A stretch of DNA of 64,000 nt. Source: an uncultured Bacilli bacterium. GTDB lineage: Bacteria > Bacillota_I > Bacilli_A > RF39 > UBA660. The stretch spans positions 12,883 through 76,882 of the forward strand of contig CAKOHK010000006.1 of NCBI GenBank assembly GCA_934085595.1, read 5' to 3'. This document shows positions 544 to 56,271 of the stretch, piece after piece (positions within the stretch are counted from its first letter, which is position 1; every line of letters starts with the position of its first letter). The translations under genes and the position numbers were made by a program. The notes beneath the pieces are model-generated. The model was not told the DNA's origin. It saw only the letters and a list, made by a program, of their open reading frames with translations, and made no database searches.

Positions 544-1251
544 ATGGATAATAATAAGGGACAAACAATATTCCTATCTGTAATAGGTATTGCTACTTTA
601 TTAGTTGCTATTATCGGAGCTACATTTGCATACTTTAGTATTACTGTTACTGGTAATGAACAAGCATCAAGTATTTTCGTAACAACAGCTACTCTTGGAC
701 AAATTAACTTTGTTGATGGAACTCAAATTAAATGGGATAAAGTTAATTTAGAAAAAGGTGGAACTGACAAAACTGAAAGCAAAACTTTCACAGTTGAAAA
801 TACTGCTACTACTGCATTAACTAGTGATGTGACTTATGATGTTTACATGAAAGTTACTGCTAATACTATTTCAGCTGCTGCAAATGGAAGTGCTGGTGCT
901 GGTGCAAGTATCACTTATACTAGTGGAGCTCAAGCTGGAACTACTAAAAATTTAACTGCAGGTGAAGATTACTTCGTTTACAAAATCGAAGATGCTGATT
1001 CTGCTACTGCTGGAAAAGTTAATACTGGTGACAACTTAATTAGTATTGCTGAAACTGCTGTTCCTGGAGTATCAACTGATACAACTAAAGGAACTAAATT
1101 AAGTACAACTAGTGGTAAAATGGCTACTGGTGGACTTAATAGTAAACATGTGTATAAGTTTACATTAACTCTTAAGAATGCTGCTGACGCTACTCAAAAC
1201 GGAGTACAAGGTAAATCATTCGCTGGACAATTACAAGTTTATACAGATTAG
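544..1251 (+). CDS. TasA/CalY (camelysin, M73)-like secreted fibre subunit with SipW-cognate signal peptide
   Basis: Strong RBS AAAGGAGG upstream. N-terminus ...LLVAIIGATFAYFSITVTGNE matches the SipW-cognate signal motif (compare B. cereus CalY GGTFAYFSD, B. subtilis TasA GTWAAFND). It lies 2 genes upstream of a SipW-type signal peptidase. The C-terminal GKSFAGQLQVYTD block recurs in other TasA-like proteins in this window. Confidence 0.75.
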   Translation: MDNNKGQTIFLSVIGIATLLVAIIGATFAYFSITVTGNEQASSIFVTTATLGQINFVDGTQIKWDKVNLEKGGTDKTESKTFTVENTATTALTSDVTYDVYMKVTANTISAAANGSAGAGASITYTSGAQAGTTKNLTAGEDYFVYKIEDADSATAGKVNTGDNLISIAETAVPGVSTDTTKGTKLSTTSGKMATGGLNSKHVYKFTLTLKNAADATQNGVQGKSFAGQLQVYTD

Positions 1252-1405: not shown

Positions 1406-1879
1406 ATGAAGAATAGATGGGTTACTAATTTAATAATTATTTTAATGTTTATATCTGTATGTATAATGACAGCTTTATTTGCGGACAACTATCACAAAAT
1501 AAAAAACTCAAACATAAACTATGTAAATGCAAGTTTATTTATAACATATAATAACGATAAACAAATAAAGTTAGATAGAGAAAATATAGATTATGATTAT
1601 GAGTTTAATATTACTAATAATAGTGCATATACCGTAAAATATAAATTAGTGCTAGAAATAAACAGTAAAGATAATATAACTTATAATTTAGAAGGTAATC
1701 CATATAAGAAAACAAAAGAAGACATATTAATTAACAAAACTGGTAAAATTAATAATGAAAAAATAGAATTAACAGGTGCAGTTATAACAGGAGGACAAAC
1801 TCATTATTATAAACTAAATGTAAAATGTACAAAATGTAAAAGTAAAATACTTGGCGATGTAAAATTGGAGAGTGATTAA
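1406..1879 (+). CDS. Small secreted/membrane protein, candidate second SipW substrate (TapA/minor-subunit-like)
   Basis: N-terminal hydrophobic segment ending ...MTALFADNYHK resembles the A-x-F-x-D SipW-cognate motif. It is positioned between the TasA-like gene and sipW. Confidence 0.4.
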   Translation: MKNRWVTNLIIILMFISVCIMTALFADNYHKIKNSNINYVNASLFITYNNDKQIKLDRENIDYDYEFNITNNSAYTVKYKLVLEINSKDNITYNLEGNPYKKTKEDILINKTGKINNEKIELTGAVITGGQTHYYKLNVKCTKCKSKILGDVKLESD

Positions 1880-1880
1880 A

Positions 1881-2498
1881 ATGGAAGAAACAAAAAAAGA
1901 AAAAATATTAAGAAGACTTAAAATATTTATGAAAGTAATAGGATATTTTATAGTTGCAATACTAGTAGTAATAGGATTATTTTTAGTTTTCTATTTTGTT
2001 TCAGGTAAGTCAGCAGAAGCAAAAGGGCATAAACAACTGGTAGGTCTTTATACAATTATAAGCCCAAGTATGACTCCAATAATTAAACCATATGATGTGG
2101 TATTAACGTATAGAGTAGATGACCCTAATGATTTAAAAGTAGGGGATGTAATAACATTTTATTCTACAAATGATTTCTTTGGCGGAATACCAATAACACA
2201 CAGAATAAAAGATATAAGGGCTGTACCAAATGTAGGAACGGTATATATTACAAAAGGAGATGCTAACGGCAAAGAAGACAAAGAACAAGTATATTTCAAT
2301 AATATAGTTGGAAAAGTAGTAATTAAATTACCACAATTAGGTAAAGTACAATTCTTCCTAGCATCAAAAGGAGGCTGGATTATAGCAATACTAATCCCAT
2401 CACTAGCGGTTATATCTTATGATATATATAAAATATTTAAACTAATTCTTCTTAAAAATAAAATGTTAAGTTTAAGAAATAAACACGGTAATTTATAA
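1881..2498 (+). CDS. sipW: Signal peptidase I, SipW type (S26 family, ER/archaeal-type)
   Basis: N- and C-terminal TM segments. Catalytic Ser box ...LYTIISPSMTPIIKPYDVVL (SxSMxP) and downstream GDVITF...HRI motifs. The ORF track starts at GTG 1872, but ATG 1881 directly after the upstream stop is the likelier start. A terminator hairpin (actagg...cctagt + T-run) lies near 2512-2545. Confidence 0.75.
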   Translation: MEETKKEKILRRLKIFMKVIGYFIVAILVVIGLFLVFYFVSGKSAEAKGHKQLVGLYTIISPSMTPIIKPYDVVLTYRVDDPNDLKVGDVITFYSTNDFFGGIPITHRIKDIRAVPNVGTVYITKGDANGKEDKEQVYFNNIVGKVVIKLPQLGKVQFFLASKGGWIIAILIPSLAVISYDIYKIFKLILLKNKMLSLRNKHGNL

Positions 2499-2612
2499 AA
2501 TCACAAACTAGGTTACATAATACTCCTAGTTTTTTAATAAATATTAAAGTGTATTATTGCAATTGATTAAATAGTTTGATATACTTTAATATAGAAGAAT
2601 AGGGAGGATATA

Positions 2613-5238: not shown

Positions 5239-5254
5239 TAATTAGGAGGAAAAA

Positions 5255-6349: not shown

Positions 6350-6368
6350 GTATTAGAAAGGAAAAACT

Positions 6369-7730: not shown

Positions 7731-7859
7731 AATGTCCTTTTTCTTTTATAAAAAAAGTGATACAATTAAATAGCAACCAAATGTATACAAACAGCAATTG
7801 AAAATGTATTGTAAAGAATTATGATAAAATGATAATATTGTTATGAGAGGAAAAAAAGA

Positions 7860-41002: not shown

Positions 41003-41087
41003 TAGATTTACTTTATAGACAATATTACAATTTTCTTTTTAATATTAATAGTTAAATAAAGTTAATATCTATAATAAAGGAGTGTAT

Positions 41088-41750
41088 ATGAAGAAAATAA
41101 ATAAAATAATGCTCATAATATTAGGAATGTTAATAACTGTTAATGTAAAGGCAGTATGTCAAGATAATAAAATAAATGATTGGGCAGAAAGTTTAGAAAT
41201 AAAGTTTCAAGAAGTAAAAAATGAAGAATATCCATATTCATATTTATTAATGTTAAATAATCCAAGAGAAGATTTAAAAGTAATCGCAAAAGATACATAT
41301 AGTAATGGAGAATATAATGTAGAATATGATACAGACTTTAAAAACTATGTTATTGGAAGCGAAATACATTTTATAAAAAAAGAATATGAATTAAATATAT
41401 ATATGTCAGATAATGCATCTACTTGTGCAAAAGAATTAGTAAAAACTATTAAATATGCAGTACCAAAATATAATGAATATAATGATACATTATATTGTGA
41501 AGCTAATCCAGATGATAAAGAATGTGGAGCATACACAGATACAACAAAGAATGATAAAATGGATGATAAAGTAAAAGACTATTATGATAAACAAATAGAA
41601 AAAGAAGAAATAAGAAATCTACCTACAGGACAAAAAGTATTAAGATATATATTAGAATATGCTCCATATGTACTAGTACCACTAGTTATCCTAGTAACAG
41701 TATATCTAATAGTAATAAAAGTTATAAAGAAAAGAAGTGATGAAGAATGA
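41088..41750 (+). CDS. Small secreted protein with LPxTG-like C-terminal sorting signal (NLPTGQ + TM + KKRSDEE), cassette copy 1
   Basis: Signal peptide ...TVNVKA|VCQD. The C-terminus is RNLPTGQKVLRYILEYAPYVLVPLVILVTVYLIVIKVIKKRSDEE. The ATG 41088 start has RBS AAAGGAG; the track uses GTG 41082. Confidence 0.55.
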   Translation: MKKINKIMLIILGMLITVNVKAVCQDNKINDWAESLEIKFQEVKNEEYPYSYLLMLNNPREDLKVIAKDTYSNGEYNVEYDTDFKNYVIGSEIHFIKKEYELNIYMSDNASTCAKELVKTIKYAVPKYNEYNDTLYCEANPDDKECGAYTDTTKNDKMDDKVKDYYDKQIEKEEIRNLPTGQKVLRYILEYAPYVLVPLVILVTVYLIVIKVIKKRSDEE

Positions 41751-44700
41751 GAAAATTAAAATACCTATTCTTTAGTACATTAGTATTACTAACAAGTATA
41801 AGTACTACATTAGCCATTACTTCATCAGGACAAGTTCCAAATAGTGAAAAAGAAACAATATATCCAAGAGGATACACTACATCATGTAGACCAACTAGTT
41901 CATCAAAAGATGCGATTTATAGCTCAGTTGGAGGAGTACTTAGTGGATATATAGAAAATTCAAATATATATTATGATTCTAAAGTTTCCGATGAACTATA
42001 TACAGACGAAGTATATGCGGAAAGAGCATGTAATGAATATACAGGTTCAAGTGATAATAAAATCCACAATTATGTCTGTGATGGCACTAAACAAACTACT
42101 GGATATGCTTGCTACAAAGAAGGTAAAGTAACATTTGAAATAGATGGAAGAACCTATGAAAATATTGATGTTGATGGTGGAAGAATGTATCCCACAGAAT
42201 CTGATTGTAGTTCAAACTGTTCAGGTACATGTAAACTTCAACAAGGATATAAATATATTTATGGAAAGCAAACACAAACTGGTGAACTAAAAAATGGGAA
42301 AATAATTAATGTTGAAGGTATGCAATATCTTACTAAAAGTGGTGGAAATGCGTTTTGTATTCAGCCTATTTATTCAATGGGGTGCAATCCTGATGGTAGT
42401 CCAAATTATTGCTTAGATAGTCAATTTGATTTAAATACATGTAATAATGCTAAAGAATATAACAATGACTATAGATGTGGACTTGCACATATAGCACTTC
42501 ATGCAACAGAAGTCTTTTCTAAGAACGATAATAAGTTAGATGATAGAGAATATGCAATAGCGGATATAGCGATGAGAATGTATGCGGCATATAAAGGAAA
42601 ATTAAGAGGAACTGTTACATCAGGAGTACCAACAAAGCCAAAAGAGTATCTATATCAATATATATTCGCATTGACTGCTAAAAGAACAATAGCGGATTCC
42701 AATTATCAGAAAGATGGAATGATATGCAACTATGATGCGAATAATATAGGAGTATTATGTACGAATAATAATAACACTTTATACAAAGAAGCACTTAAAT
42801 TATTTATTAATGCTTATAATGCTAATAAACTAGATGCTAGCGGAAATAAAGTACCGGATTTAATAACAAAAAAGATAGATAATTCAACAGAAGAAATTGA
42901 AATAACAAAACCGTGTGAACCTGGTGAAAATGGATGTAAAATAAAAGTGACTCTTGTAACTGCCGATGGAAAAGTAGTAGACGAAGATGACAATGTAACA
43001 TGTTCAAAAAATATATGTACAGCAAAAATATCAGGAGAAAAAACCTGTGTAATCAAAGGTGGACAATCTTATCAAATAAGAGTACAAATAAGTAATTTTA
43101 CTGCAGAAGGTTCGATGAAAATATATCACGATTGTAAACATCCAAATAGTAATCAAATAATGTTCGTATTTGATGCGAAAGGAACCGAAACAGTTGATAC
43201 ATTTGAAAAGAAATACGAAATAAATGCAGTCTGTGAAGATACAACTTGTGATAATAAATCATTACAGACAAAAGTAACAAAAACAAATGCAAGTGGAACA
43301 AGTAACAATATCACATCATGTGATGGATATAGTGAAAATGCATATGGAAAAACGACAAAAGAAATTAATAGCAAATATTATGGAAAAGGAAATTATGATG
43401 GTTATGACAAAATAACTATCGCAGAACCTTCCCTTAAAGATATTTTAAATAATTGTGATAAAAGTTATTTTAGACAAACAAAATATGATCAGGGTGGTGG
43501 AGGATATTGTGAAGTTTACTGCCGTAAAGAAACTGTAATTTATATGGCAGATAAAACAAAAGTGTTCTCTGGAATGCAATTTCAGTATAAATTAGAAGAA
43601 AAAATACCAAATAGTAAAACGACAGATAATCATATAACTTCAATTGTTCAAGTAAAGCAAGAATGTGCATCAGTAATTCATTTTGATGAATGGTATGCAA
43701 AATTAGAAGAATTATTAAAAAATGTTGCAAATGCATGGAACGATTGGAAACATTATGAAGCAATGTATCTTCAAGAAATAGATAAATCTACGGATTATCC
43801 AGAGATCACATGGTATGACCCTCCTTGTACAGCTAACTGTGATGCTTTAAGTGGAAGCAAAACAATGAAAGATGCATGTAATGCTACAAAAGATTTAGAG
43901 GGAGAGTTCTCAACAGGTGGTCAAAAAATTAAAATAGAAGAAGCATGTAAAAATAGAGTAACATATGACCAGTCGACCGGAAGTGTTTGTAATCCAGGAT
44001 GTACATACATTATTAGTTGGTTGCAAAAAAATACCGAACATAACACATACACATATAATAATGGTGGTTCATTATCTAAAAAAGTAGATAAAAGTTCCGA
44101 AATAGATGGTAATTATGGAGGCTCAAGATTGAGCTGTACATATAATAGCGGAACATATAATTATACTTATAGTAGAGACAAAGACGGATCAATTTCATCT
44201 GGTTCAGGTGTGTTAGAAACAGGATTAACTCGTCCATCTAATAGAATTGAGTCATTAAACTATAAAAGTTTCTTAGGAAACGATCCGGATTATTACTATG
44301 GATACTCTAAAGAGCAATGTGAGAATGATGCAGCAAATAGTCTTGGACAAGCTCAATCACTAGCTGCATCAAGAGCATCTGCAGGAGACTATAATTATTG
44401 TGCAGATGTTAAGATATGCAAAAGAATGGTAAATAAAAAATTAGTGCAATATGAATGTGGATGTAACAGGTATACATGGCAAATTACTTCAATATCATCA
44501 ACAACATATAATAGAGGAACGTGCTCATATACTAGTGGTGGAACTTGCTCTCAAGGTAAAAATGCTGATCCTGACAAAGTAAAAAACGCAACACTTGCTA
44601 AAAGAAGTGCATATTTAGCAGCACAAGCAGCAGTACAACAACATTTAAAATATATTCAAAATTGTAACTTATATGGTGCAAATGATTGGGTACATGTTGA

Positions 44701-46150
44701 TTCAGCAATAAAAGATTATGTTTTAACTCTCGGAAGTACAGGATACCCTAGAGAATCTTCTGGAACTGGTGGATCTGGTGGATCTGGTGGCGGAGGTACT
44801 GGAAGTGGAGGAGATGGCACAGGCGGAGGTGGAAACACCGGAGGCGGTGGTGGAGATACAATATATATAACTAAACCTGGTCAGGAACAAACGGCAGCTA
44901 TGCCTGGATATGAAAATTTAAAAGCCACAAACGCTTTATCAACTACTAGCAAATATGCAACAATAAAATTAGCAACTGATAGTTCGTTGAGTACAATAAT
45001 AAAGAAAAATATATTATCAGATGCGAGTTGTCTAAGAACTGGAACATGTCCAGAATTAGATGTGGAATATGATGATATAGCTTACGGAAACACACAAAGA
45101 TATGATAGAACTGCTCATGTAGTAGATTCAGAAGATTTACCTAATAAATATTGTAAAGACGAAAAAGGACAAGACTGTGAATACAGTTACTCAGATATAG
45201 AAAAATGGGTTCCACTAATAGTTTGCGATAACAGCTCTGAAAAAGAAATAAACAAATATTGCTATATACCAAGTGATACAAAAGTACCAACAGCAAGAAG
45301 AGCCTATTTTACAACAACAACAGAACTTATGTATTATAGACCAAATGAATATTATACAGAAAATCATACTGGAAAAGTAATTGAAGTTAAAAGTAATACA
45401 AGGGTTGATTCAAATAAATATGCAATGCTTGGTAAAAACGTATATCCTATATCTAACGTAGATACTGGAATATACGGAATTAGATATCATTTTATAGGAA
45501 TTGGTAGTGGAAAGTTCTATAACATTTCTAAAAACAATAACACAGGATTAAAACTTAACAATTTTGATTATACATGTGCATATGAAGCGTATAATAACTC
45601 AAATAAATATGACTGTGATGGAAGCAGTTGCAATGGAAATGATAATACATGTGTAAGAGTAACTGAAACGGCTCCAAATCTATCAACAACAAAATGGGAT
45701 AAATTAACAGATAAAAAGAGTTATGGATTTATGTTCAAAAATACTGAACTATCAGATATTTTCAAAAATGAAAATAGAAAAATAGGAAATAACTGGAATA
45801 ATGAAAAAGCTCAAATAGCAAAACAAGAAATAGAAGAGTCGGCAACTGATATTTATACAAATAGTGAAAGATTAATGTTAAGTGTAACATTGTCAACAGA
45901 TGCAATTAAGAAAATTAGAGAATATAACGAATCAAGAGAAACAAATGCAGGAGGATATACAGATGATTCACTAATTAGTTGTGAACTTGCAAACGCTATA
46001 GATGGAGATGGAAAAGTGTTCAAAAACTGTAGAAGTGCATTTATAGATGAAATAAGTACAGGAAGTGGGGTACTTGGAATAAAATCAAATAGTGAAATTA
46101 TAAGGGGAGGAAAAGAAATAGGAAGTAGTAGCAAAGGAGGCAATAATTAG
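41747..46150 (+). CDS. Giant (1467 aa) cysteine-rich secreted protein, cassette copy 1
   Basis: Signal peptide MRKLKYLFFSTLVLLTSISTTLA. Dozens of Cys in paired patterns (CDGSSCNGNDNTC, CEPGENGCKIK, CSKNICTAKI). Gly-rich linker SGTGGSGGSGGGGTGSGGDGTGGGGNTGGGGGD. No C-terminal sorting signal. Confidence 0.6.
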   Translation: MRKLKYLFFSTLVLLTSISTTLAITSSGQVPNSEKETIYPRGYTTSCRPTSSSKDAIYSSVGGVLSGYIENSNIYYDSKVSDELYTDEVYAERACNEYTGSSDNKIHNYVCDGTKQTTGYACYKEGKVTFEIDGRTYENIDVDGGRMYPTESDCSSNCSGTCKLQQGYKYIYGKQTQTGELKNGKIINVEGMQYLTKSGGNAFCIQPIYSMGCNPDGSPNYCLDSQFDLNTCNNAKEYNNDYRCGLAHIALHATEVFSKNDNKLDDREYAIADIAMRMYAAYKGKLRGTVTSGVPTKPKEYLYQYIFALTAKRTIADSNYQKDGMICNYDANNIGVLCTNNNNTLYKEALKLFINAYNANKLDASGNKVPDLITKKIDNSTEEIEITKPCEPGENGCKIKVTLVTADGKVVDEDDNVTCSKNICTAKISGEKTCVIKGGQSYQIRVQISNFTAEGSMKIYHDCKHPNSNQIMFVFDAKGTETVDTFEKKYEINAVCEDTTCDNKSLQTKVTKTNASGTSNNITSCDGYSENAYGKTTKEINSKYYGKGNYDGYDKITIAEPSLKDILNNCDKSYFRQTKYDQGGGGYCEVYCRKETVIYMADKTKVFSGMQFQYKLEEKIPNSKTTDNHITSIVQVKQECASVIHFDEWYAKLEELLKNVANAWNDWKHYEAMYLQEIDKSTDYPEITWYDPPCTANCDALSGSKTMKDACNATKDLEGEFSTGGQKIKIEEACKNRVTYDQSTGSVCNPGCTYIISWLQKNTEHNTYTYNNGGSLSKKVDKSSEIDGNYGGSRLSCTYNSGTYNYTYSRDKDGSISSGSGVLETGLTRPSNRIESLNYKSFLGNDPDYYYGYSKEQCENDAANSLGQAQSLAASRASAGDYNYCADVKICKRMVNKKLVQYECGCNRYTWQITSISSTTYNRGTCSYTSGGTCSQGKNADPDKVKNATLAKRSAYLAAQAAVQQHLKYIQNCNLYGANDWVHVDSAIKDYVLTLGSTGYPRESSGTGGSGGSGGGGTGSGGDGTGGGGNTGGGGGDTIYITKPGQEQTAAMPGYENLKATNALSTTSKYATIKLATDSSLSTIIKKNILSDASCLRTGTCPELDVEYDDIAYGNTQRYDRTAHVVDSEDLPNKYCKDEKGQDCEYSYSDIEKWVPLIVCDNSSEKEINKYCYIPSDTKVPTARRAYFTTTTELMYYRPNEYYTENHTGKVIEVKSNTRVDSNKYAMLGKNVYPISNVDTGIYGIRYHFIGIGSGKFYNISKNNNTGLKLNNFDYTCAYEAYNNSNKYDCDGSSCNGNDNTCVRVTETAPNLSTTKWDKLTDKKSYGFMFKNTELSDIFKNENRKIGNNWNNEKAQIAKQEIEESATDIYTNSERLMLSVTLSTDAIKKIREYNESRETNAGGYTDDSLISCELANAIDGDGKVFKNCRSAFIDEISTGSGVLGIKSNSEIIRGGKEIGSSSKGGNN

Positions 46151-46630
46151 ATGAAAGAATCAATATGGGGCTATATGATATTAGCACTAGGAATAGTAAT
46201 AATAGTAGTATTACTATTGGTACAAAGAGTAACAACAACAGGAGAAGAAGATTACTACCTAGTAAGAGAAATATTAGAGTCCTCAATGATAGACGCAATA
46301 GATTATGGTTCTTATAGATTATCAGGAAGAATAGTAATGTCAGCAGAAAAGTTTGAAGAAGTATTTATAAGAAGATTCGCAGAAAGTGTAACGAATAATA
46401 GAGAATATAAATTAGAGTTCTATGAAATCTATGAAGACCCTCCAAAAGCAACAGTAAGAGTAAGGACAGCAAGTGGAGATTATAGTGTAAACTCTGATAC
46501 ATTAAATGTAAGTATAGATACACTATTAAGTGGAATATTAGAAACAAAAGATACAAGAACATGCGATGATGTACCAGAAGATACAGATACTGCTCCAACA
46601 ATACCAGTACTTCCAGTATTTGGAAATTAA
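46151..46630 (+). CDS. Small membrane-anchored protein (159 aa), cassette copy 1
   Basis: Start ATG overlaps/abuts the giant gene's stop (TAGATG). N-terminal TM ILALGIVIIVVLLLV. Confidence 0.5.
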   Translation: MKESIWGYMILALGIVIIVVLLLVQRVTTTGEEDYYLVREILESSMIDAIDYGSYRLSGRIVMSAEKFEEVFIRRFAESVTNNREYKLEFYEIYEDPPKATVRVRTASGDYSVNSDTLNVSIDTLLSGILETKDTRTCDDVPEDTDTAPTIPVLPVFGN

Positions 46631-46635
46631 ACTTA

Positions 46636-46676
46636 AAAGAACTATTAAGGAATAAGATATTTATAGTTCTTTTTTT
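46636..46676 (+). terminator. Rho-independent terminator (AGAACTAT...ATAGTTCT + T7)
   Basis: Inverted repeat read directly. Confidence 0.55.
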
Positions 46677-46822
46677 ATAGTAAAACTTAATAACTGTTTA
46701 TAAAGTTAAAGCCTTAAAACATTAAAATAAGTATGAAAATGTACAAATTTTATTTTCAAATAAAACATGGACTATAATTTATAAAAATGATATACTTATT
46801 TTATAAAAGTAAAGGAGTGTAT

Positions 46823-47485
46823 ATGAAGAAAATAAATAAAATAATGCTCATAATATTAGGAATGTTAATAACTGTTAATGTAAAGGCAGTATGTCAAGAT
46901 AATAAAATAAATGATTGGGCAGAAAGTTTAGAAATAAAGTTTCAAGAAGTAAAAAATGAAGAATATCCATATTCATATTTATTAATGTTAAATAATCCAA
47001 GAGAAGATTTAAAAGTAATCGCAAAAGATACATATAGTAATGGAGAATATAATGTAGAATATGATACAGACTTTAAAAACTATGTTATTGGAAGCGAAAT
47101 ACATTTTATAAAAAAAGAATATGAATTAAATATATATATGTCAGATAATGCATCTACTTGTGCAAAAGAATTAGTAAAAACTATTAAATATGCAGTACCA
47201 AAATATAATGAATATAATGATACATTATATTGTGAAGCTAATCCAGATGATAAAGAATGTGGAGCATACACAGATACAACAAAGAATGATAAAATGGATG
47301 ATAAAGTAAAAGACTATTATGATAAACAAATAGAAAAAGAAGAAATAAGAAATCTACCTACAGGACAAAAAGTATTAAGATATATATTAGAATATGCTCC
47401 ATATGTACTAGTACCACTAGTTATCCTAGTAACAGTATATCTAATAGTAATAAAAGTTATAAAGAAAAGAAGTGATGAAGAATGA
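46823..47485 (+). CDS. Small secreted LPxTG-like protein, cassette copy 2 (identical to 41088-41750)
   Basis: Identical amino-acid sequence to copy 1 from MKKINKIM on. Confidence 0.55.
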   Translation: MKKINKIMLIILGMLITVNVKAVCQDNKINDWAESLEIKFQEVKNEEYPYSYLLMLNNPREDLKVIAKDTYSNGEYNVEYDTDFKNYVIGSEIHFIKKEYELNIYMSDNASTCAKELVKTIKYAVPKYNEYNDTLYCEANPDDKECGAYTDTTKNDKMDDKVKDYYDKQIEKEEIRNLPTGQKVLRYILEYAPYVLVPLVILVTVYLIVIKVIKKRSDEE

Positions 47486-50400
47486 GAAAATTAAAATACC
47501 TATTCTTTAGTACATTAGTATTACTAACAAGTATAAGTACTACATTAGCCATTACTTCATCAGGACAAATACCATCAAATCAAAAAGAGTTTATATGGTA
47601 TAAAGGAAAAAGCTGTGCTCCAGGTTCAGAAGTAAAATATGGTCCAGTATCAGGTTATTATAGTGCTTTTTCTTCAGATAGTAAGAAATCTTATACATAT
47701 TACACATCACCAACTATATATACTGATGAAGCATATGCTACAAAAGGATGTGAATACTTTACATCACAAAGTAAAAATAAAGATAAAAATTATTTATGTA
47801 CAGGGACTAAACAAACATCAGGATATGCTTGTTACAAAGAAGGAAAAGTAACATTTGAAATAGATGGAAGAACATACGAAAATATTAATGTTGATGGTGG
47901 AAGAATGTACACTAGTGAATCAGAATGTGCTGATAACTGTAGCGGAACATGTAAAGTTCAAAAAGCATATGGATTTGAATATGCAACAGAAATAGACACA
48001 GGAACAACTACTAACGGTGAAATAGCGCCTCTTTATGGAGATGTATACTCAACAGCAAATGGTAACCCTGCATTTTGTATACAACCAGCAGCAAGAATGA
48101 GTTGTTATGGAGATAATAGTGCCCAATATTGTTTAAACAGTACTTTCGATTTAACAACATGTAATACAGCAAATGGATATAAATCTGATTATAGATGTGG
48201 TCTTGCAAATATAGCACTTCATGCAACAAAATTAAAAAATAATGACAATGCATTAAACGATGAAGAATATGCTATCGCAGATATTGCAATGAGAATGTAT
48301 GCAGCATATAAAGGAAAATTAAGAGGAACTGAATACGCATCAGTGCCAACAGAATCAGCATTCAATGAAAGCGGATTAAAAAAGAATGTGTTTATGGGTA
48401 AATATCTATTTGGATTAACAGCCAAAAGAGTAGACCAAGATGGTAATTATTTAAATAATGGACTTAAATGTAATACAGATACAAGAAACATAGGAATTAT
48501 GTGTAACTGTGATCCAAAAACAGGAAGCTGTCAATATAATCAAACTACATACTTAGAAGCATTAAAATTATTTAAAATGGCACTTGATACAAATACACTA
48601 GATAGTGAAGGAAACAAAGTACCAGACTTAATTACAAAAAATATAGATAACACAACAAGTGAAATAGAAATAACTAAACCATGTGAGCCAGGAGAAGACG
48701 GATGTAAAATAAAAATAAGTCTTGTAACTGCTGATGGAAAAGTAGTAGACGAAGATGACAATGTAACATGTTCAAAAAATATATGTACAGCAAAAATAAC
48801 TGGTGAAAAAACATGTATTGAAAAAAGTCAAAAGTATAGCGTAAAAGTTGAAATATCTAATATAAAGTTTGATGGAGAAATTAAAGAATACCATCACTGT
48901 ACTTATCCAAACGATAGACAAATAATGATGGTTCTAGATATAGCGGCACAGGAAGTAACAGATAACTTTACTAAAACTTATGAAGTTAAAACAACATGTG
49001 ATTCATGTGTTAATAATTCTTCTGATATGAAAACAACAATAACATCAGAAAATGCTAATGGAACTAAAAATAAATCATTAACAGCATGTGACGGAAATAA
49101 AAATTATGGTGAAGGTGACTACGATGGATATGACAAAATAACAATCGCTGAACCATCAATGGATTCTATACTTAAAAGTTGTGATAAAGAATCATTTAGA
49201 GAGAGTGAGTTTGAAATAAATACTGGAGGATATTGTCAAATATATTGTAGAAAAGAAACTGTAATATATTTAGCAGATAAAACAAAAGTATTCTCAGGAA
49301 TGCAATTCCAATATAAATTAGAAGAGAAAGTACCTAATAGTAAAAAAACAGATAATCATATATCATCAATAGTACAAGTTAAAAAAGAATGTACATCTGT
49401 TATAAATTATCAAAAGTTTGAATCAGAATTAGAAGCAAAATTAAAACAAGTAGCAAATGCTTGGACTGAATATAAAAAATGGGAAGCTCTTAGATATGCT
49501 GAGTCATATGCAGATGATTCAAGTTATCCAAAAGTAGCATCTTATAAACCACAATGTAGCGCAAACTGTGATATAGGTGACAATCAAACTGTAAATAAAG
49601 CATGTCAAGAAGTAAGTGGAGAAGGTGCATTTATATTAGAATGGACAAGTGGAAAAATTGCTGGTACTAAAGGCTATGGCGCTAATGCATGGTGTGGTTC
49701 AGTACCTCAAACAGATATAGATTCAGGCGGTGTGTGTAATCCAGGATGTCACTTTAAATTAAGATGGTATAAAAACGGAAATACAAAATATCAACAATTT
49801 ACATATAGTGGAAACGGAAACGGAAGTAATTCAGGAAAAGAAGCATCAGCACAAGATGGAGAACTATATGGAATATCTAATAGAACATGTATAGCAAGAG
49901 ACGGAGGATATAACTATAAAACCATTGATAATGGTGGTGGAAAGTGTTCATGTGCATCATCCGGAACAGTAAATGGATTTACAGAAGTTATGTCATTGGA
50001 TAATCCATACACTAAAGCAAAATGTAATGCAGATTATAAAGACAAAAAAGGTTTTTCTGCACCAAGTAATAGTTGTTCATATCAATCAGGAACAGAAAAG
50101 TATGAATGTGGAACCATTAGAAGACCTAAGTCATGTATTAGAGCTGTGTATACAACTAAAACATGTGAAGGTTCATTTACAGGTTATGCATCAAGTTCAT
50201 GTAATTTTACATCAACAGGATCTTGTACACCGGGTAAAGATGGTGATCCACAATATGTAGCTAAACATTTAGTTGAAGCAGCGGAAAAATATTATTCACT
50301 ACAAAATGAAGTATTACAAATGCTTAAAAACTTAGAAAACTGTAATTTCTATGGTAATGATTGGATTGCAGGAGAACCAAGCTTTAAATCATATGAATTA

Positions 50401-51786
50401 AGTCTTACAAAAGGTGGAACTCGTGGTCTAGTATCAACTGCACAAGCAATATTAAACGCAGGAAAAGTAGTTGAAGGAAATTATGGTGAAGGTGGAGGCG
50501 GTGGCGGAGAAGTCATTAGTATTCCAGAATTCGATGCATTAAAAATGTCATACGACTTCACAAGCGATGTTAAAACATCAACTGCTCTAGAAGAATATAA
50601 TAATAACTATGCAAAAATAAAACTAGCAACAAGTACAAACGATGTAATAAAGAAAAATATTCTAGCATCAGCTACATGTTTAACAAATAATACATGTCCA
50701 GAACTAGATGTAGAATATAATGATGTAGCATATGGAAATACACAAAGATATGATAGAACTGTAAATGTAGTAGCAGATGACGATATATTTAATCATTATT
50801 GTATAGGTGACAATTGTGGTTTATCAGTAGATCAAGTTAAAAGTAATACATACTTTATAGAATGTGACGATACAGGATTAAAACCAGAAAAGAAAACATG
50901 TAAAGTAATAACAGTTCCAGTATCACATGCAACAAAAGCATACTTTACTTCAACAACAGAACTTATGTATTATAGACCAAATGAATATTATACAGAAAAC
51001 CATACTGGAAAAGTAATTGAAGTTAAAAGTAATACAAGAGTTGATAGTGGAAAATATGTATCATTAGGTAAAAATGTATATCCAATATCAAATGTAAATA
51101 CAGGAATATATCCTATAAGTTATCATTTTACTAATATAGGTAGTGGTAAATATTATAATGTTTCTAAATATAATCAAACAGGTTTAAAACTAACTAATTT
51201 TGATTATGATTGTGCATATGAAGCATACAATAATTCAAATAAATATGACTGTGATGGAAGCAGTTGTAATGGAAATGATAATACATGTGTAAGAGTAGTA
51301 GAAACAGCTCCAAATCTATCAACAACAAAATGGGATAAATTAACAGATAAAAAAAGCTACGGATTTATGTTCAAAAATACTGAACTATCAGATATTTTCA
51401 AAAATGAAAATAGAAAAATAGGAAATAACTGGAATAATGAAAAAGCTCAAATAGCAAAACAAGAAATAGAAGAGTCGGCAACTGATATTTATACAAATAG
51501 TGAAAGATTAATGTTAAGTGTAACATTGTCAACAGATGCAATTAAGAAAATTAGAGAATATAACGAATCAAGAGAAACAAATGCAGGAGGATATACAGAT
51601 GATTCACTAATTAGTTGTGAACTTGCAAACGCTATAGATGGAGATGGAAAAGTGTTCAAAAACTGTAGAAGTGCATTTATAGATGAAATAAGTACAGGAA
51701 GTGGGGTACTTGGAATAAAATCAAATAGTGAAATTATAAGGGGAGGAAAAGAAATAGGAAGTAGTAGCAAAGGAGGCAATAATTAG
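47482..51786 (+). CDS. Giant (1434 aa) cysteine-rich secreted protein, cassette copy 2 (mosaic paralog)
   Basis: The first ~29 aa and the last ~165 aa are identical to copy 1, and the preceding ~120 aa are near-identical. The centre alternates identical blocks (YACYKEGKVTFEIDGRTYENI; EYAIADIAMRMYAAYKGKLRG; EIEITKPCEPGE.GCKIK..LVTADGKVVDEDDNVTCSKNICTAKI; KTKVFSGMQFQYKLEEK) with strongly divergent stretches. The Gly-rich linker is shortened to GEGGGGGGE. Confidence 0.6.
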   Translation: MRKLKYLFFSTLVLLTSISTTLAITSSGQIPSNQKEFIWYKGKSCAPGSEVKYGPVSGYYSAFSSDSKKSYTYYTSPTIYTDEAYATKGCEYFTSQSKNKDKNYLCTGTKQTSGYACYKEGKVTFEIDGRTYENINVDGGRMYTSESECADNCSGTCKVQKAYGFEYATEIDTGTTTNGEIAPLYGDVYSTANGNPAFCIQPAARMSCYGDNSAQYCLNSTFDLTTCNTANGYKSDYRCGLANIALHATKLKNNDNALNDEEYAIADIAMRMYAAYKGKLRGTEYASVPTESAFNESGLKKNVFMGKYLFGLTAKRVDQDGNYLNNGLKCNTDTRNIGIMCNCDPKTGSCQYNQTTYLEALKLFKMALDTNTLDSEGNKVPDLITKNIDNTTSEIEITKPCEPGEDGCKIKISLVTADGKVVDEDDNVTCSKNICTAKITGEKTCIEKSQKYSVKVEISNIKFDGEIKEYHHCTYPNDRQIMMVLDIAAQEVTDNFTKTYEVKTTCDSCVNNSSDMKTTITSENANGTKNKSLTACDGNKNYGEGDYDGYDKITIAEPSMDSILKSCDKESFRESEFEINTGGYCQIYCRKETVIYLADKTKVFSGMQFQYKLEEKVPNSKKTDNHISSIVQVKKECTSVINYQKFESELEAKLKQVANAWTEYKKWEALRYAESYADDSSYPKVASYKPQCSANCDIGDNQTVNKACQEVSGEGAFILEWTSGKIAGTKGYGANAWCGSVPQTDIDSGGVCNPGCHFKLRWYKNGNTKYQQFTYSGNGNGSNSGKEASAQDGELYGISNRTCIARDGGYNYKTIDNGGGKCSCASSGTVNGFTEVMSLDNPYTKAKCNADYKDKKGFSAPSNSCSYQSGTEKYECGTIRRPKSCIRAVYTTKTCEGSFTGYASSSCNFTSTGSCTPGKDGDPQYVAKHLVEAAEKYYSLQNEVLQMLKNLENCNFYGNDWIAGEPSFKSYELSLTKGGTRGLVSTAQAILNAGKVVEGNYGEGGGGGGEVISIPEFDALKMSYDFTSDVKTSTALEEYNNNYAKIKLATSTNDVIKKNILASATCLTNNTCPELDVEYNDVAYGNTQRYDRTVNVVADDDIFNHYCIGDNCGLSVDQVKSNTYFIECDDTGLKPEKKTCKVITVPVSHATKAYFTSTTELMYYRPNEYYTENHTGKVIEVKSNTRVDSGKYVSLGKNVYPISNVNTGIYPISYHFTNIGSGKYYNVSKYNQTGLKLTNFDYDCAYEAYNNSNKYDCDGSSCNGNDNTCVRVVETAPNLSTTKWDKLTDKKSYGFMFKNTELSDIFKNENRKIGNNWNNEKAQIAKQEIEESATDIYTNSERLMLSVTLSTDAIKKIREYNESRETNAGGYTDDSLISCELANAIDGDGKVFKNCRSAFIDEISTGSGVLGIKSNSEIIRGGKEIGSSSKGGNN

Positions 51787-52266
51787 ATGAAAGAATCAAT
51801 ATGGGGCTATATGATATTAGCACTAGGAATAGTAATAATAGTAGTATTACTATTGGTACAAAGAGTAACAACAACAGGAGAAGAAGATTACTACCTAGTA
51901 AGAGAAATATTAGAGTCCTCAATGATAGACGCAATAGATTATGGTTCTTATAGATTATCAGGAAGAATAGTAATGTCAGCAGAAAAGTTTGAAGAAGTAT
52001 TTATAAGAAGATTCGCAGAAAGTGTAACGAATAATAGAGAATATAAATTAGAGTTCTATGACATCTATGAAGACCCTCCAAAAGCAACGGTAAGAGTAAG
52101 AACAGCAAGCGGAAATTATAGTGTAAACTCTGATACATTAAATGTAAGTATAGATACATTACTAAGTGGAATATTAGAAACAAAAGATACAAGAACGTGT
52201 GAAGATGTACCAGAAGATACAGATACTGCCCCAACAATACCAGTACTTCCAGTATTTGGAAATTAA
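51787..52266 (+). CDS. Small membrane-anchored protein (159 aa), cassette copy 2
   Basis: 3 aa substitutions relative to copy 1. A terminator (aagatact...agtatctt + T-run) follows near 52271-52298. Confidence 0.5.
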   Translation: MKESIWGYMILALGIVIIVVLLLVQRVTTTGEEDYYLVREILESSMIDAIDYGSYRLSGRIVMSAEKFEEVFIRRFAESVTNNREYKLEFYDIYEDPPKATVRVRTASGNYSVNSDTLNVSIDTLLSGILETKDTRTCEDVPEDTDTAPTIPVLPVFGN

Positions 52267-52358
52267 AACGAAAGATACTAAAAAAGTATCTTTTTGTATA
52301 CACAAAAATGTTAGAAAATTAACTTATAAAATCAGACTAATAATTTTAATTTTGCTTC

Positions 52359-52388
52359 TTGACATTGAAGGAAGAATATAATTATAAT
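52359..52388 (+). promoter_or_regulatory. Sigma-A-type promoter TTGACA-18-TATAAT upstream of TasA-like paralog A
   Basis: TTGACA 52359-52364; tandem TATAAT hexamers at 52377-52388. The block TTTGCTTCTTGACA...TATAATT(G/A)TTAATAGAGAATA is repeated upstream of paralog C at 55765-55815. Confidence 0.5.
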
Positions 52389-52415
52389 TGTTAATAGAGA
52401 ATAAAGGAATGTAGA

Positions 52416-54212
52416 ATGAAAGATAAAAAGTTTATATTTGCAAGTGTATTGGTAGCAGTATTTTTATTAACAGTAGGTCTAACTTATGCTTATTTTAGTT
52501 TGACAGTTAGTGGTAATGATGTAGCTGAGACTATAAATGTAAATACTACAAAGTTAGAATTAAAATATACTGATGGAAAAGAAGTAAAAGCAAATGGTAT
52601 AGAACCAGGCTGGACCATGACTAAAACTTTAACTATTGAAAATACTGGAACAGAAGAAGTTTTTTATGATTTAGGATGGCAAGATTTAACTAATGAAATA
52701 GAACAAGATGAACTTAAAATAAGTGGTACATGTGATAGTGGAAGCTGTGAAGATATAGAAGAAAGTATAGTACCTCTAGTATCAAATCAAAAAGCAAGTT
52801 CTGGTAAAGTAGTTAATCCATATAAAAGTGGAATAGCTATCGCAGGTGGTGAAACACATTCATATACAATTAAACTTGAGTTTATAAATTATACTGATAA
52901 AGCACAAAACTATAATCAAGGTAAAAGATTATATGGAGTACTTGGAGTAGCTGAAAGCACTAAAACATTTAACTTAACATTGAATTTAGAAGATGAAAAT
53001 GGAAATCCACTAGCAAATAAAGAAGTGACAATACATTCAGAACCTAAAACTTCAACATCTGATAGTGCAGGAAAAGTTGTATTTAATGACGTAGAAGTAG
53101 GAATGCATAATTTAGAAGTAAAAACTGATACTAAAACATTAAATGCTAAAGTAAAAGTACAAGGTTCAAATAATAATGCGGTTGAAAAAACAGATAATAA
53201 TTATACAATTAAAGGAACTTCAAAGGAAAATAATATTAACTTAGGAATAACAGTTGATAGTGAAAAGGTAACAGATGTATACGTGAAAGGTAGTAAACTT
53301 AATGCTTATTTAATAGATAATTATAGTGCGTTAGGTTTAACTAAAATTGAGCAGGCGGCAGTAAATAATCAAACTTATGATAGTACTGAATATAGATATC
53401 AAGGAGCAAATCCAAATAATTATATAACTTTTAATAATGAAGAAGGTAAGTGGAGAATCATCGGCGTATTCGAAGTTGAAACACCTAATGATGATGGAAC
53501 ATATACTAAAGAAAATAAAGTAAAGATAATAAGAGATTCAATAGGTACATCGGCGTATGATGGTAAAACAACACTTTTAGTAAATTATAAAGTTTCAACT
53601 ATAAATAGTAATTTAAATAATTCTAATGGTGCAGCGCCTTATGATATATTGAAAAATAATTCAAGCTATATTACTAAAACAAGATATTATATGGGAAATG
53701 TATCAGAATCTCAAATGTTGAAAGGTATTTATAGCGATGAGAGAAACAAAAGTTCTAATAGTGATAGCGACTATGATGACTTCTTTATTGGGTTAATTTA
53801 TACAAGTGATTATATGTATGCAAGTAGTAGTTGTTATGATAAAGATAATAATACATCCACAAAGTTAGGATACTCTACAAGTGAAAGTAATGATTACAGA
53901 GCATGTACAAATGATAATTGGTTGTATACTGGTAATAATTATTGGACTTTTAATAATAGCAAATATAGTGACGAAGAACACATTTATACAGACAATTATC
54001 AAGTTGGAAAGTTGAGATTCACTTCTGCAAAAATTGCAGCTCCAAGTGGAGGATATTTATTTCCTGTTTATATTTCTGAAGATGGAAAAATATACTACCA
54101 AAACAGAAAATCCAGTTATAATGTAAGACCTTCATTATATCTAAGTACAGATGTAACATTTATGAGTGGCAATGGCACTATAGATAATCCATTTACTATA
54201 TCAATTAAATAA
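52416..54212 (+). CDS. TasA/CalY-like multidomain fibre protein (paralog A, 598 aa) with SipW-cognate signal peptide
   Basis: N-terminus ...LLTVGLTYAYFSLTVSGNDVAE (SipW-cognate motif). Conserved NYNQGKRLYGVLGVAES block. A central Ig/CnaB-like insert and a ~250-aa Cys-containing C-terminal domain are shared with paralog B. Confidence 0.65.
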   Translation: MKDKKFIFASVLVAVFLLTVGLTYAYFSLTVSGNDVAETINVNTTKLELKYTDGKEVKANGIEPGWTMTKTLTIENTGTEEVFYDLGWQDLTNEIEQDELKISGTCDSGSCEDIEESIVPLVSNQKASSGKVVNPYKSGIAIAGGETHSYTIKLEFINYTDKAQNYNQGKRLYGVLGVAESTKTFNLTLNLEDENGNPLANKEVTIHSEPKTSTSDSAGKVVFNDVEVGMHNLEVKTDTKTLNAKVKVQGSNNNAVEKTDNNYTIKGTSKENNINLGITVDSEKVTDVYVKGSKLNAYLIDNYSALGLTKIEQAAVNNQTYDSTEYRYQGANPNNYITFNNEEGKWRIIGVFEVETPNDDGTYTKENKVKIIRDSIGTSAYDGKTTLLVNYKVSTINSNLNNSNGAAPYDILKNNSSYITKTRYYMGNVSESQMLKGIYSDERNKSSNSDSDYDDFFIGLIYTSDYMYASSSCYDKDNNTSTKLGYSTSESNDYRACTNDNWLYTGNNYWTFNNSKYSDEEHIYTDNYQVGKLRFTSAKIAAPSGGYLFPVYISEDGKIYYQNRKSSYNVRPSLYLSTDVTFMSGNGTIDNPFTISIK

Positions 54213-54300
54213 GATACTAAAACCTAGTACCTTTTTATAGGTTCTATTGTAATTAATCATTAGAGTTGATATAATAATAACTAGAGTAAAGGAAGATAAT

Positions 54301-55725
54301 ATGAAAGATAAAAAGTTTATATTTTCAAGTATATTGGTTGCAACATTCTTGTTAACAGTAGGGCTAACTTATGCTTATTTTAGTTTGACAGTTAGTGGTA
54401 ACGATGTAGCTGAAACTATTAATGTAAATACTACAAAGTTAGAATTAAAATATACTGATGGTAAAGAAGTAAAAGCAGACGGTATAGAACCAGGGTGGAC
54501 TACAACTAAAACTATTACAGTAGAAAATAAAGGTAATGAAGAAACATATTACACTCTTGGATGGCAAAAACTTTATAATGAGATTCAAAAAGATGAACTT
54601 GTTATAAGAAGTTCGTGTACAAGTAGTGGAGTAACTACAGGTACATGTCAAAGCACTGAAAATGTAATAATTTCACAGACTCTAGTAGTGACAGCAGAAA
54701 CAAATAAAGTAGTATATCCATATAAAGAAAATGCAAAGATATTACCAGGTGAAGTTCATACCTATACTATAACGATAGAATTTATAAATTATACTGACAT
54801 GCCACAAAACTATAATCAAGGCAAAAGCTTTTATGGAGTGTTAGGAGTAGCAGAAAGTGGCGAAAAATCAATTCTTGCAGATTATCTAATAGAAAATTAT
54901 CAAACGTTAGGTTTAACAAAAATAGATCAAGCTGCAACTGGTAATCAAAATTATGCTACAACCGAATATAGATATCAAGGAAAAGATCCAAATAATTATA
55001 TTACATTTAATGATGAAACTGGAGTATGGAGGATAATTGGTGCTTTAGAAGTAGAAACACCTCAAACAGATGGAACTTATATTAAGGAATATAAAGTTAA
55101 AATTGTTAGAGATAGTCTAGAAAATGGAAAGTGGGGAAGCGTGTCTGCAAATGACTGGACTTCAGCATCACTTATGACTACATTCAATAGCGGAGATTAT
55201 TATAATAGAAGTGGTTCTTATAGTGAAACTGGATTAACGGAAAATGCAAAAAATCAAATAAGCAGTACGAAATGGTATTTAGGAAATGCACAATATGGTG
55301 TTAATACGCAAAAAGTATATTCATCTGAAAGAAGTACTAGTGTACAAAGTGGCAATAAGCAAACATGGGATGGAAAAGTTGCGCTTATATATCCTAGTGA
55401 CTATATGTATGCAAGTAGCGCATGTTATAATGATGATACAAAAAAAGGTTGGGATACTAATGGTATATCACCATTTAATACAGATTATAGAAGTGAAACA
55501 TGCAAAAGTACAGGATGGTTATTAGATACAAATCAATGGTATTGGGCTATTTCCCCAAACAATTTCAGTTCAGATTTTGCAATGGTTATACTTAGTGAAG
55601 GATATATGAGAAGTTATAGTAGTTATCGTAATTCAGGTGGTATTCGTCCTTCATTGTATCTTAACGCTAGTGTAAATTACATATCAGGATCTGGAAGTAA
55701 TAGTGACCCATTTATAATAGGTTAA
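54301..55725 (+). CDS. TasA/CalY-like multidomain fibre protein (paralog B, 474 aa)
   Basis: The N-terminal ~60 aa are nearly identical to A. It has the NYNQGKSFYGVLGVAES block and a homologous C-terminal domain (YRYQGKDPNNYITFNDETGVWRIIGALEVETP...). Confidence 0.65.
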   Translation: MKDKKFIFSSILVATFLLTVGLTYAYFSLTVSGNDVAETINVNTTKLELKYTDGKEVKADGIEPGWTTTKTITVENKGNEETYYTLGWQKLYNEIQKDELVIRSSCTSSGVTTGTCQSTENVIISQTLVVTAETNKVVYPYKENAKILPGEVHTYTITIEFINYTDMPQNYNQGKSFYGVLGVAESGEKSILADYLIENYQTLGLTKIDQAATGNQNYATTEYRYQGKDPNNYITFNDETGVWRIIGALEVETPQTDGTYIKEYKVKIVRDSLENGKWGSVSANDWTSASLMTTFNSGDYYNRSGSYSETGLTENAKNQISSTKWYLGNAQYGVNTQKVYSSERSTSVQSGNKQTWDGKVALIYPSDYMYASSACYNDDTKKGWDTNGISPFNTDYRSETCKSTGWLLDTNQWYWAISPNNFSSDFAMVILSEGYMRSYSSYRNSGGIRPSLYLNASVNYISGSGSNSDPFIIG

Positions 55726-55822
55726 CTAATAAAAAAGTGTTCACGAAAGTGTTCGCTTTTTATTTGCTTCTTGACAGGGGGGGTACCTTTATAATTATTA
55801 ATAGAGAATAGAGGTACATAGA

Positions 55823-56191
55823 ATGAAAGATAAAAAGATTATTTTTGCAAGTGTATTAATTGGTATATTCTTGTTAACAGTAGGAATTACTTATGCTTAT
55901 TTTAGTTTGACAGTTAGTGGTAACGATGTAGCTGAAACTATTAATGTAAATACTACAAAGTTAGAATTAAAATATACTGATGGAAAAGAAATAAAAGCAA
56001 ATAGTATAGAACCAGGTTGGACTATAACTAAGAGTTTAACTATCGAAAATACTGGAAGTGAAGAAGTATATTATGATTTAGGATGGCAAAAGTTAACTAA
56101 TGAAATACAAAAAGATGAACTTAAAATAAGTGGTACATGTGATAGCGGCAATGGAACTATAGATAGTCCATTCACAATATCAATTGATTGA
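55823..56191 (+). pseudogene. Internally deleted TasA-like paralog C (122 aa): N-terminal 107 aa fused to the last 13 aa of the family
   Basis: The sequence is colinear with paralog A to ...KISGTCDSG, then jumps to NGTIDSPFTISID (A ends ...SGNGTIDNPFTISIK). The deletion junction lies at the microhomology AGTGG(C/A)AATGG. Confidence 0.5.
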
Positions 56192-56271
56192 TACTAACCT
56201 CTAGTATCTTTTAATTTGCTTAAAGTTGTAATATAATTATAGTGTTAGTAACTATGGAAAGGATATATTAT

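Follow-up and report, generated by a model that had tools for sequence, protein, structure and literature searches.

What does an array of TasA-like genes do when two of its products carry large additional domains? This question is raised by a 64-kb stretch of DNA from an uncultured Bacilli bacterium (contig CAKOHK010000006.1, positions 12,883 to 76,882; the whole stretch is referred to as the window), where three adjacent paralogs, named A, B, and C, encode proteins with a TasA/camelysin-type N-terminal domain. An earlier note on this DNA had regarded A and B as possible enlarged fiber subunits. That view overlooked the nature of the C-terminal domain, which is best matched by the C-type-lectin fold of the DUF6273 type, and the targeting of this protein family by diversity-generating retroelements (DGRs) in sister species. 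The explanation favored here, with a probability of about 0.6, is that A and B belong to a family expanded in uncultured, spore-forming gut Bacilli and act at the cell surface as secreted proteins built of two modules, a TasA-type one and a lectin-fold head, that the head is frozen in this species, and that C is a dead copy.

All three open reading frames (ORFs) described in the note were found on the forward strand, as were the domains, promoter-like sites, terminator-like hairpins, and sipW operon genes given below. Paralog A (52416..54212, 598 amino acids) consists of a signal peptide (residues 1-25), a TasA-like domain (26-186), an Ig-like spacer (~187-292), and a lectin-fold domain (~293-598). 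Paralog B (54301..55725, 474 amino acids) consists of a signal peptide, a TasA-like domain (26-186), and a lectin-fold domain (190-474). Paralog C (55823..56191, 122 amino acids) is an in-frame deletion remnant of an A-type gene. All three products start with MKDKK...(L/I)TYAYFSLTVSGNDVAETINV. The insert of about 105 residues in A (52974..53291) is missing from B, as the note had stated, and gave an Ig-like match to the CarboxypepD_reg family (PF13620) with an E-value of 1e-4, below the Pfam cutoff. PF13620 is also found in the precomputed annotation of full-length A-type homologs.

The N-terminal domain common to the three products spans roughly 160 amino acids, and over this domain A and B share 69% identity. 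The family profile PF12389 (Peptidase_M73, TasA/camelysin) scored 25.8 bits in A and 24.1 bits in C against a cutoff of 22.5, with the match covering only positions 13-78 of the 196 in the profile. In B the score of 15.9 bits stayed below the same cutoff, while the full-length relatives of B do match. A profile of the domain built from twelve diverse relatives retrieved 1252 proteins, and PF12389 was present in 120 of the 120 matches listed. When the same profile was searched against 177,635 PDB sequences, the two best matches were Bacillus subtilis TasA, at a marginal E-value of 0.011. An hhalign comparison with TasA gave a probability of 92% and an E-value of 7e-7, and it placed the motif TYA/YFS of the array proteins on the TasA cleavage site TWA/AFN; the TasA sequence used is consistent with the TasA segments in the PDB match. 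The TasA-like core proposed in the note is thus borne out by the above-cutoff PF12389 scores of A and C, by the listed N-domain matches, and by TasA as the top PDB match. The BsaA model TIGR04090 scored 25-27 bits on the N-terminal domains (E-values of 3e-6 to 1.4e-5); the curated cutoff of 60 bits was not reached by A or B.

AlphaFold2 predicted the N-terminal domain (52491..52973 in A) as an all-beta sandwich with a predicted local distance difference test (pLDDT) score of 83, in which the mature N-terminus, its first 10 residues, is disordered. In an alignment of 35 homologs with 60-73% identity, the most conserved parts were this mature N-terminus (residues 21-40) and residues 71-100, at 0.1-0.25 bits. 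Such a combination of conservation with disorder in the monomer has been described for the donor strands of TasA and BsaA (PMC11580942), and the resemblance of the mature N-terminus of A and B to these strands is suggestive only. Additionally, residues N34, E56, and K70 are present in A, B, and C and are invariant or nearly so in the family; their positions are reminiscent of the intermolecular isopeptide triad N35-E56-K74 reported for Clostridium perfringens BsaA. By eye, the N-terminus showed no G/F..E motif, and the possibility of a type IV prepilin was rejected for this reason.

The C-terminal domain shared by A (53292..54209) and B (54868..55722) contains Cys, as the note had observed, with two near-invariant residues of this kind, and measures 285-305 amino acids rather than the ~250 given there. 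The two copies are 40% identical (tblastn E-value of 9e-53), and the domain of B was modeled with a pLDDT above 90. The top PDB match of the B model in a Foldseek search was 9qa6, the IgA peptidase of Thomasclavelia ramosa, with an E-value of 4.4e-6 over 306 columns, the aligned part not being reported. Residues 31-322 of 9qa6 are assigned to DUF6273 (PMC12402451), and the N-terminal domain of this peptidase is an enlarged C-type-lectin-like domain (PMC12237041). When the BFVD collection of predicted viral structures was searched, 6 of the top 11 matches were named 'DUF6273 domain-containing protein' and belonged to gut phages, with E-values of 2.5e-6 to 2e-4 and probabilities of 0.96-1.00. 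DUF6273 has been described as a DGR target and as a C-type-lectin fold that occurs in the receptor-binding proteins of phages (PMC10743442). Moreover, sister proteins with the same N-terminal domain carry PF19789 (DUF6273) at the same position as the head. On these predicted structures, the head of A and B is best called a divergent, enlarged DUF6273-like C-type-lectin-fold domain.

The head forms a family of its own, for which 2110 proteins were found; full-length relatives of B numbered 583. It was also seen outside the TasA-like context. For example, it occurs on another N-terminal module of ~230 amino acids that has an LSYAKFT signal motif, in proteins of 512-545 amino acids without any Pfam match, and it is fused to a Flg_new (Listeria-Bacteroides repeat) protein. 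These other fusions were seen in L022 (6325-7872), in L021 (16525-18258), and in P0278-P0310. The joining of the same head to several N-terminal modules would fit a role in binding.

A link between this protein family and DGRs was observed in sister species. A complete cassette is present in a metagenome-assembled genome (MAG) of a Bacilli bacterium from goat caecum (L015, JAFQID010000003, 1-4205). It comprises a target gene encoding a TasA-like domain and a lectin-type head (234-1421), a template repeat (TR, ~1632-1744), a bAvd gene (2015-2374; PF22296, 4.8e-11), and a reverse transcriptase (RT) gene (2349-3869; RVT_1, 3.5e-19, with an additional MutS_I-like match). All 15 mismatches between the variable region (VR) of the target and the TR fall at TR adenines (15/15, p of 6e-10). 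Similarly, in L019 an Asn-rich, TR-like fragment of 76 codons directly follows a 505-amino-acid ortholog of the B type (P0043, 65% identical to B), and 20 of the 21 differences between the fragment and the 3' end of the gene, over 93 nucleotides, were at TR adenines (p of 2e-10). This pattern is typical of a DGR template repeat. The region after the ortholog (11519-11830 in L019/L020) holds a GC-rich hairpin of -23 kcal/mol in addition to the Asn-rich fragment, and no RT was found in the 33 kb examined around the L019 target. Between the strain variants P0043 and P0313, 16 differences were counted in a VR stretch of 25 residues (453-477), 14 of which were at positions encoded by TR Asn codons.

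Five unrelated loci hold B-type orthologs whose VR is GC-rich, at 0.45-0.65 compared with ~0.32 across the genes, and no RT was found within 6-10 kb of these five. In L021, L024, L025, and L026, the GC-rich VR is located at unrelated chromosomal sites and has neither a TR nor an RT adjacent to it. The same GC hairpin follows the stop codon of two B-type orthologs, that of L024 as well as that of L019. Since GC-rich VRs occur without an adjacent TR or RT, the distribution suggests that the DGR may act on remote targets in this family.

The corresponding segment in the window was found in a different state. In B, the counterpart of the variable region of the orthologs is formed by residues 420-446 (55558..55638). 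Between species, no other part of the protein varies as much (2.3-2.7 bits), and B retains the scaffold residues of the VR. Apart from the paralogs, the window contains no further copy of the 3' end of A or of B that could serve as a TR, and tblastn with the RT and bAvd of L015 gave no match in its 64 kb. The VR-equivalents of A and B show no GC peak, their GC content of 0.28-0.35 being typical of the genome, and no hypervariation at the strain level was found, as 7 strain variants of B are identical over residues 419-450. When JGI metagenome contigs were scanned for exact matches to the 3' end of B and to a degenerate TR pattern, and IMG/VR for the TR pattern, nothing was returned. A DGR within the window was therefore excluded, there being no TR copy, RT or Avd gene, GC-rich VR, or strain-level VR variation. 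The segment of B is read here as a putative orphaned, frozen variable region, and the loss of the DGR in this species is inferred rather than shown, because only 64 kb of the genome were available and the collection scans were empty.

An alternative is that A, B, or both are still active targets of a DGR whose TR and RT reside elsewhere in the genome and act in trans. The orthologs of the B type from five species with GC-rich VRs and no RT within 6-10 kb, together with the VR scaffold residues kept in B, would agree with such an arrangement. It is nevertheless highly improbable here, given the genome-typical GC content of both VR-equivalents, the absence of a TR copy, RT, or Avd gene from the window, and a VR of B that is identical in 7 strain variants, compared with 16 varying positions in the DGR-active ortholog.

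On the basis of the lectin-fold head and the DGR targeting of the family in sister species, the heads of A and B are probably ligand-binding, which would make these proteins adhesins rather than plain fiber subunits. The opposing view treats A and B as major, self-polymerizing fiber subunits, that is, as an alternative TasA repertoire in which the extra domains are mere decoration, and it is considered unlikely. Solved TasA-type fibers are not known to include any in which each subunit bears a globular head of ~300 amino acids. A lectin-type binding fold that is diversified by DGRs in orthologs argues for ligand recognition, and the presence of the same head on unrelated N-terminal modules also speaks against simple subunits. 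What such a repertoire would explain is the TasA-family N-terminal domain with its highly conserved mature N-terminus, the possession of a promoter-like site by each gene, and the array itself, since paralog arrays and nearby sortase genes are common for the TasA/BsaA family (PMC11580942).

The signal peptides of A, B, and C are near-identical, and a motif of the TYAYFS type stands at the end of their hydrophobic signal sequence. Within the 64 kb, only four ORFs have this motif in signal-peptide position: the three paralogs and a 235-amino-acid ORF at 544..1251, which encodes a TasA-like core protein with the signal motif ATFAYFS and opens the sipW operon. The next two genes encode a secreted protein of 157 amino acids without a family match (1406..1879) and a SipW-type (archaeal/ER-type) signal peptidase I (1872..2498). 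The peptidase scored 86.9 bits with TIGR02228 against a cutoff of 51.85, in agreement with the note, and 79.9 bits with the Bacillus SipW equivalog model, below the cutoff of 190. Its operon is separate from the array and located ~50 kb upstream. Downstream of sipW (2613-9068) lie five ORFs of 375, 501, 364, 453, and 402 amino acids, of which the 501-amino-acid ORF contains a Walker-A-like GISGTGKT motif.

In one relative (L017), the same order of a tasA-like gene, an intervening gene, and sipW was found, with sipW adjoining TasA-like genes, and in another (L013), sipW lies ~5 kb from a member of the array family. The operon of L017 (258-3091) encodes a TasA-like protein of 229 amino acids, a protein of 392 amino acids whose C-terminal domain is TasA-like and which also has Asp-rich repeats resembling DxDxDG, and a SipW of 257 amino acids, a layout comparable to that of 544-2498 in the window. 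It is plausible, judging from the signal motif and its distribution, that A and B would be processed by the SipW encoded 50 kb away.

Several observations weigh against the two-module reading or parts of it. The model for SipW-cognate signals, TIGR04088, did not match the first 50 residues of A or the N-terminal domains of A and B, and it stayed below its cutoff of 19 in the 235-amino-acid protein (15.1 bits) and in the sister protein P0124 (12.5 bits). It was not listed in any scan of whole proteins or N-terminal domains, and the scan of a short N-terminal fragment of an array protein covered A. The motif itself is present in all three paralogs and aligns with TWAAFN of TasA, and the refuting checks named in the earlier note gave a weak outcome. 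Neither a cell-wall sorting signal nor another anchor was found in A or B. In other species, the family is represented by single genes or pairs of genes that are surrounded by genes for cell division, replication, and transport and are mostly not beside sipW. A fold search with the model of the N-terminal domain alone returned generic beta-sandwiches (best E-value of 1.7e-3) and left TasA outside the top 50; only with the full-length model did TasA appear, at a probability of 0.90 and an E-value of 0.015. For the head, the PF19789 profile did not match A or B at E-values up to 0.1, the best single match among the 35 homologs had an E-value of 0.046, and hhalign of the C-terminal domain with the DUF6273 part of the sister proteins gave 0.056. 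A sequence search of the PDB returned nothing beyond chance-level matches for the C-terminal domains of A and B, and no match for the full-length profile. Lastly, the portion of the genome analyzed amounts to 64 kb, which leaves room for a DGR elsewhere.

Some of these points would fit proteins that form no fiber at all. A and B could be monomeric lectins, secreted or tethered to the membrane, in which the TasA-like domain serves as a stalk and the signal is cleaved by a general signal peptidase or retained as an anchor. The missing TIGR04088 match, the distance of 50 kb from sipW with housekeeping surroundings in other species, and the generic sandwiches in the N-domain fold search are all in line with this idea. 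It is regarded as rather doubtful, however, because the mature N-terminus is the most conserved part and is predicted to be disordered, like the donor strands of TasA and BsaA (PMC11580942), because their alignment with TasA extends over the signal peptide and cleavage region, and because the motif is confined to the array ORFs and the gene beside sipW.

If A and B are indeed two-module surface proteins, they would be exported via Sec and cleaved after Ala25 (TYA/YFS) by the SipW-type peptidase. The mature N-terminus may then serve as a donor strand that links the TasA-like domains into or onto TasA-type fibers, for which the 235-amino-acid protein of the sipW operon would be the likely core subunit. 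The lectin head would be displayed to bind a ligand, the Ig spacer of A extending its reach, and diversity of the head would be generated by DGR rewriting in sister species and by paralogs here. The more specific proposal, that A and B are subunits, or else tip or decorating subunits, of donor-strand fibers with a lectin head, that this head is reprogrammed in sister species by a DGR with frequently remote targets, that the link to the DGR was lost here, and that paralogs substitute for it, is offered tentatively, the odds being against it in this full form.

Paralog C was confirmed to be the product of a deletion. It consists of A-type residues 1-108 followed, in the same frame, by the final 14, with the junction at codons 108-109 (56144-56149), and has lost 476 codons (1428 nucleotides). 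The join described in the note was correct, the extents given there being 107 and 13 residues. The microhomology of 11 nucleotides invoked there was not found: the deletion end points in A have only the 5 nucleotides AGTGG in common (52737-52741 and 54165-54169), and AGTGGCAATGG, of 11 nucleotides, is merely the right-hand flank. Because the N-terminus of C is closest to full-length proteins of 578 amino acids from another species, and nearer to these than to A, C would descend from an A-type ancestor of its own and not from present-day A. Over residues 1-60, the three paralogs share 77-97% protein identity and 86-96% DNA identity in pairwise comparisons. The strain variants of B (P0242-P0250) differ from the window sequence mainly in the signal peptide (54322-54360, B residues 8-20), where the form seen most often matches the signal peptide of C (SVLIGIFLL). 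Because signal-peptide variants of B match C and the 5' ends are this similar in DNA, an exchange of sequence among the paralogs, presumably by gene conversion, is pointed to.

The earlier note had also assigned a duplicated promoter to each paralog. This applies to A and C, which alone share the block of -35 and -10 hexamers, the copy of C having a 5-nucleotide deletion; the leader and ribosome-binding stretch is common to all three. The promoter-like site of A (52359..52388) reads TTGACA-18-TATAAT, with 12 of 12 hexamer positions matched. That of B (54247..54275) has a different -35 hexamer and reads TTGTAA-17-TATAAT, with TG before the second hexamer. The degenerate promoter of C (55771..55795) combines TTGACA and TATAAT with a spacer of only 13 nucleotides that includes a run of seven G (G7, 55777-55783). 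Overall, the promoter scan of the window gave 32 sites compared with 29.4 expected in shuffled sequence, which is not above expectation. Terminator-like hairpins follow B (55732..55761; -12.1 kcal/mol, z of -3.1, then a U-run) and C (56190..56208; z of -2.6).

Could C nevertheless be a functional short protein, such as a chain-terminating or nucleating subunit, perhaps switched by the length of the G7 run? Its deletion is in frame, its ORF is intact in five strain variants with at least 97% identity, and it still has a signal peptide and a terminator hairpin as well as the putative donor strand. In addition, the G7 run is the sole G/C homopolymer of at least 6 bases in the 64 kb, in a region of ~30% GC locally. 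Such a function is judged quite improbable, as about half of the beta-sandwich is gone, which makes a stable fold unlikely, and the 13-nucleotide spacer is four bases short of the usual ~17. The lengths of the G7 run and of the spacer are the same in five assemblies, and the variants are too close for a test of selection. Phase variation at the run was accordingly dismissed as unsupported. C is better described as a decaying copy that has undergone the 1428-nucleotide in-frame deletion and the shrinkage of its promoter spacer to 13 nucleotides.

The array and its surroundings were also compared among genomes. The order A-B-C followed by PFOR, Ffh, and FtsK recurs on human-gut metagenome contigs (Hadza and other), and such neighbors give no support to the idea that the locus derives from a prophage or a phage tail. 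Directly upstream, a three-gene module is duplicated in tandem (41056-52267), ending right before A. Its genes encode a C-terminally anchored protein of 222/232 amino acids (NLPTGQ, a transmembrane helix, and a KKRSDEE tail), a giant, Cys-rich, secreted protein of 1467/1434 amino acids without a Pfam match, and a DUF5411 protein of 159 amino acids (E-value of 1e-49). The two copies match at 76% across 2.7 kb and at 88% across 1.7 kb, and diverge in their middle parts. Upstream of this module, a gene at 38748-40367 encodes a protein of 539 amino acids in which the C-terminal sortase domain (PF04203, 9.5e-14) is preceded by a long stretch without annotation. A functional tie of the array to these sortase, giant-protein, and DUF5411 genes was rejected as a trait of the family, and the array is not a fixed part of the upstream cluster, because its homologs in other species are found in unrelated housekeeping contexts. 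The host organisms are uncultured, spore-forming gut Firmicutes, judging from sporulation genes on the contigs and from MAGs that are labeled 'uncultured Bacilli', 'Mollicutes', or 'Clostridium sp.'.

By itself, the locus in the window is rather unremarkable, an array of paralogs of which one is a pseudogene. TasA-family fibers are regarded as structural scaffolds of the biofilm, and the joining of a TasA module to a diversifiable lectin head in a family widespread among gut Bacilli suggests that such fibers may also act as programmable adhesins. The relatives constitute a natural experiment, as this protein is found in combination with an active DGR, in a form whose variable region is a fossil, and in paralog arrays; the tuning of attachment or recognition by gut Firmicutes could be studied in this way. 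To the biology of DGRs, the family adds a target class in uncultured Bacilli and apparent remote targets without a nearby reverse transcriptase; no paper linking DGRs to TasA-family proteins, or describing the combination of a TasA-like with a DUF6273-type domain, was found in the searchable literature, although this combination is visible in precomputed domain tables. For annotation, two domains of proteins that so far had no domain names now receive them.

Comparison with known systems places A and B between several of them. With the TasA/CalY/BsaA family they share the alignment of TYA/YFS with the TWA/AFN cleavage site, the motifs GTL.L...PG...K..V.N.G and QN.xQG in the beta-sandwich, the presence of sipW and a small TasA-like gene in the genome, and the occurrence of paralog arrays. 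In contrast to that family, only the first ~186 residues of A and B are TasA-like, with a Cys-Cys loop, and they are followed by a head of 285-305 amino acids. A has an Ig spacer besides, the genes lie outside the sipW operon, the BsaA model gives 26-27 bits against 60, and the role in fibers is a predicted one only.

For the head, DUF6273 (PF19789), known from 9qa6 and from the 'tentaclins' of gut phages, provides the best fold matches. Like the N-terminal domain of the IgA peptidase, the head is enlarged, irregular alpha/beta, and roughly double a classical C-type lectin domain in size (PMC12237041), and it has a variable C-terminal segment that ends in a conserved ...G(V/I)RP.(L/V)YL. Unlike in the peptidase and the phage tail proteins, the head of A and B is C-terminal to a TasA-like module, and it is matched neither by the Pfam model nor by PDB sequences. 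The closest counterparts in architecture are the sister proteins of ~407 amino acids that combine PF12389 with PF19789 in 'uncultured Bacilli' MAGs (e.g., P0124). They have the same module order, and their N-terminal domain is 40-45% identical to that of A and B (hhalign E-value of 9e-45), whereas their DUF6273 domain is of the canonical size of ~230 amino acids and the head of A and B is divergent and measures 285-305.

TasA-family paralog arrays and DGR-diversified lectin heads were already known separately. The nearest parallel in function, in which the latter are combined with an assembly module, is the type V pilus of Bacteroides, whose adhesive components are diversified by DGRs (bioRxiv 10.1101/2024.11.15.621889). 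Like this family, it joins a pilus- or fiber-type assembly module to a lectin-fold head with a diversified tip. It differs from the present family in that the module here is TasA-like and belongs to Gram-positive bacteria with SipW, and in that the genes of the window carry no DGR footprint. By this analogy, lectin-headed TasA fibers might represent a Gram-positive counterpart of the DGR-diversified type V pilus adhesins of Bacteroides, a parallel that belongs to the same tentative proposal of lectin-headed fibers and is put forward with equal reserve.

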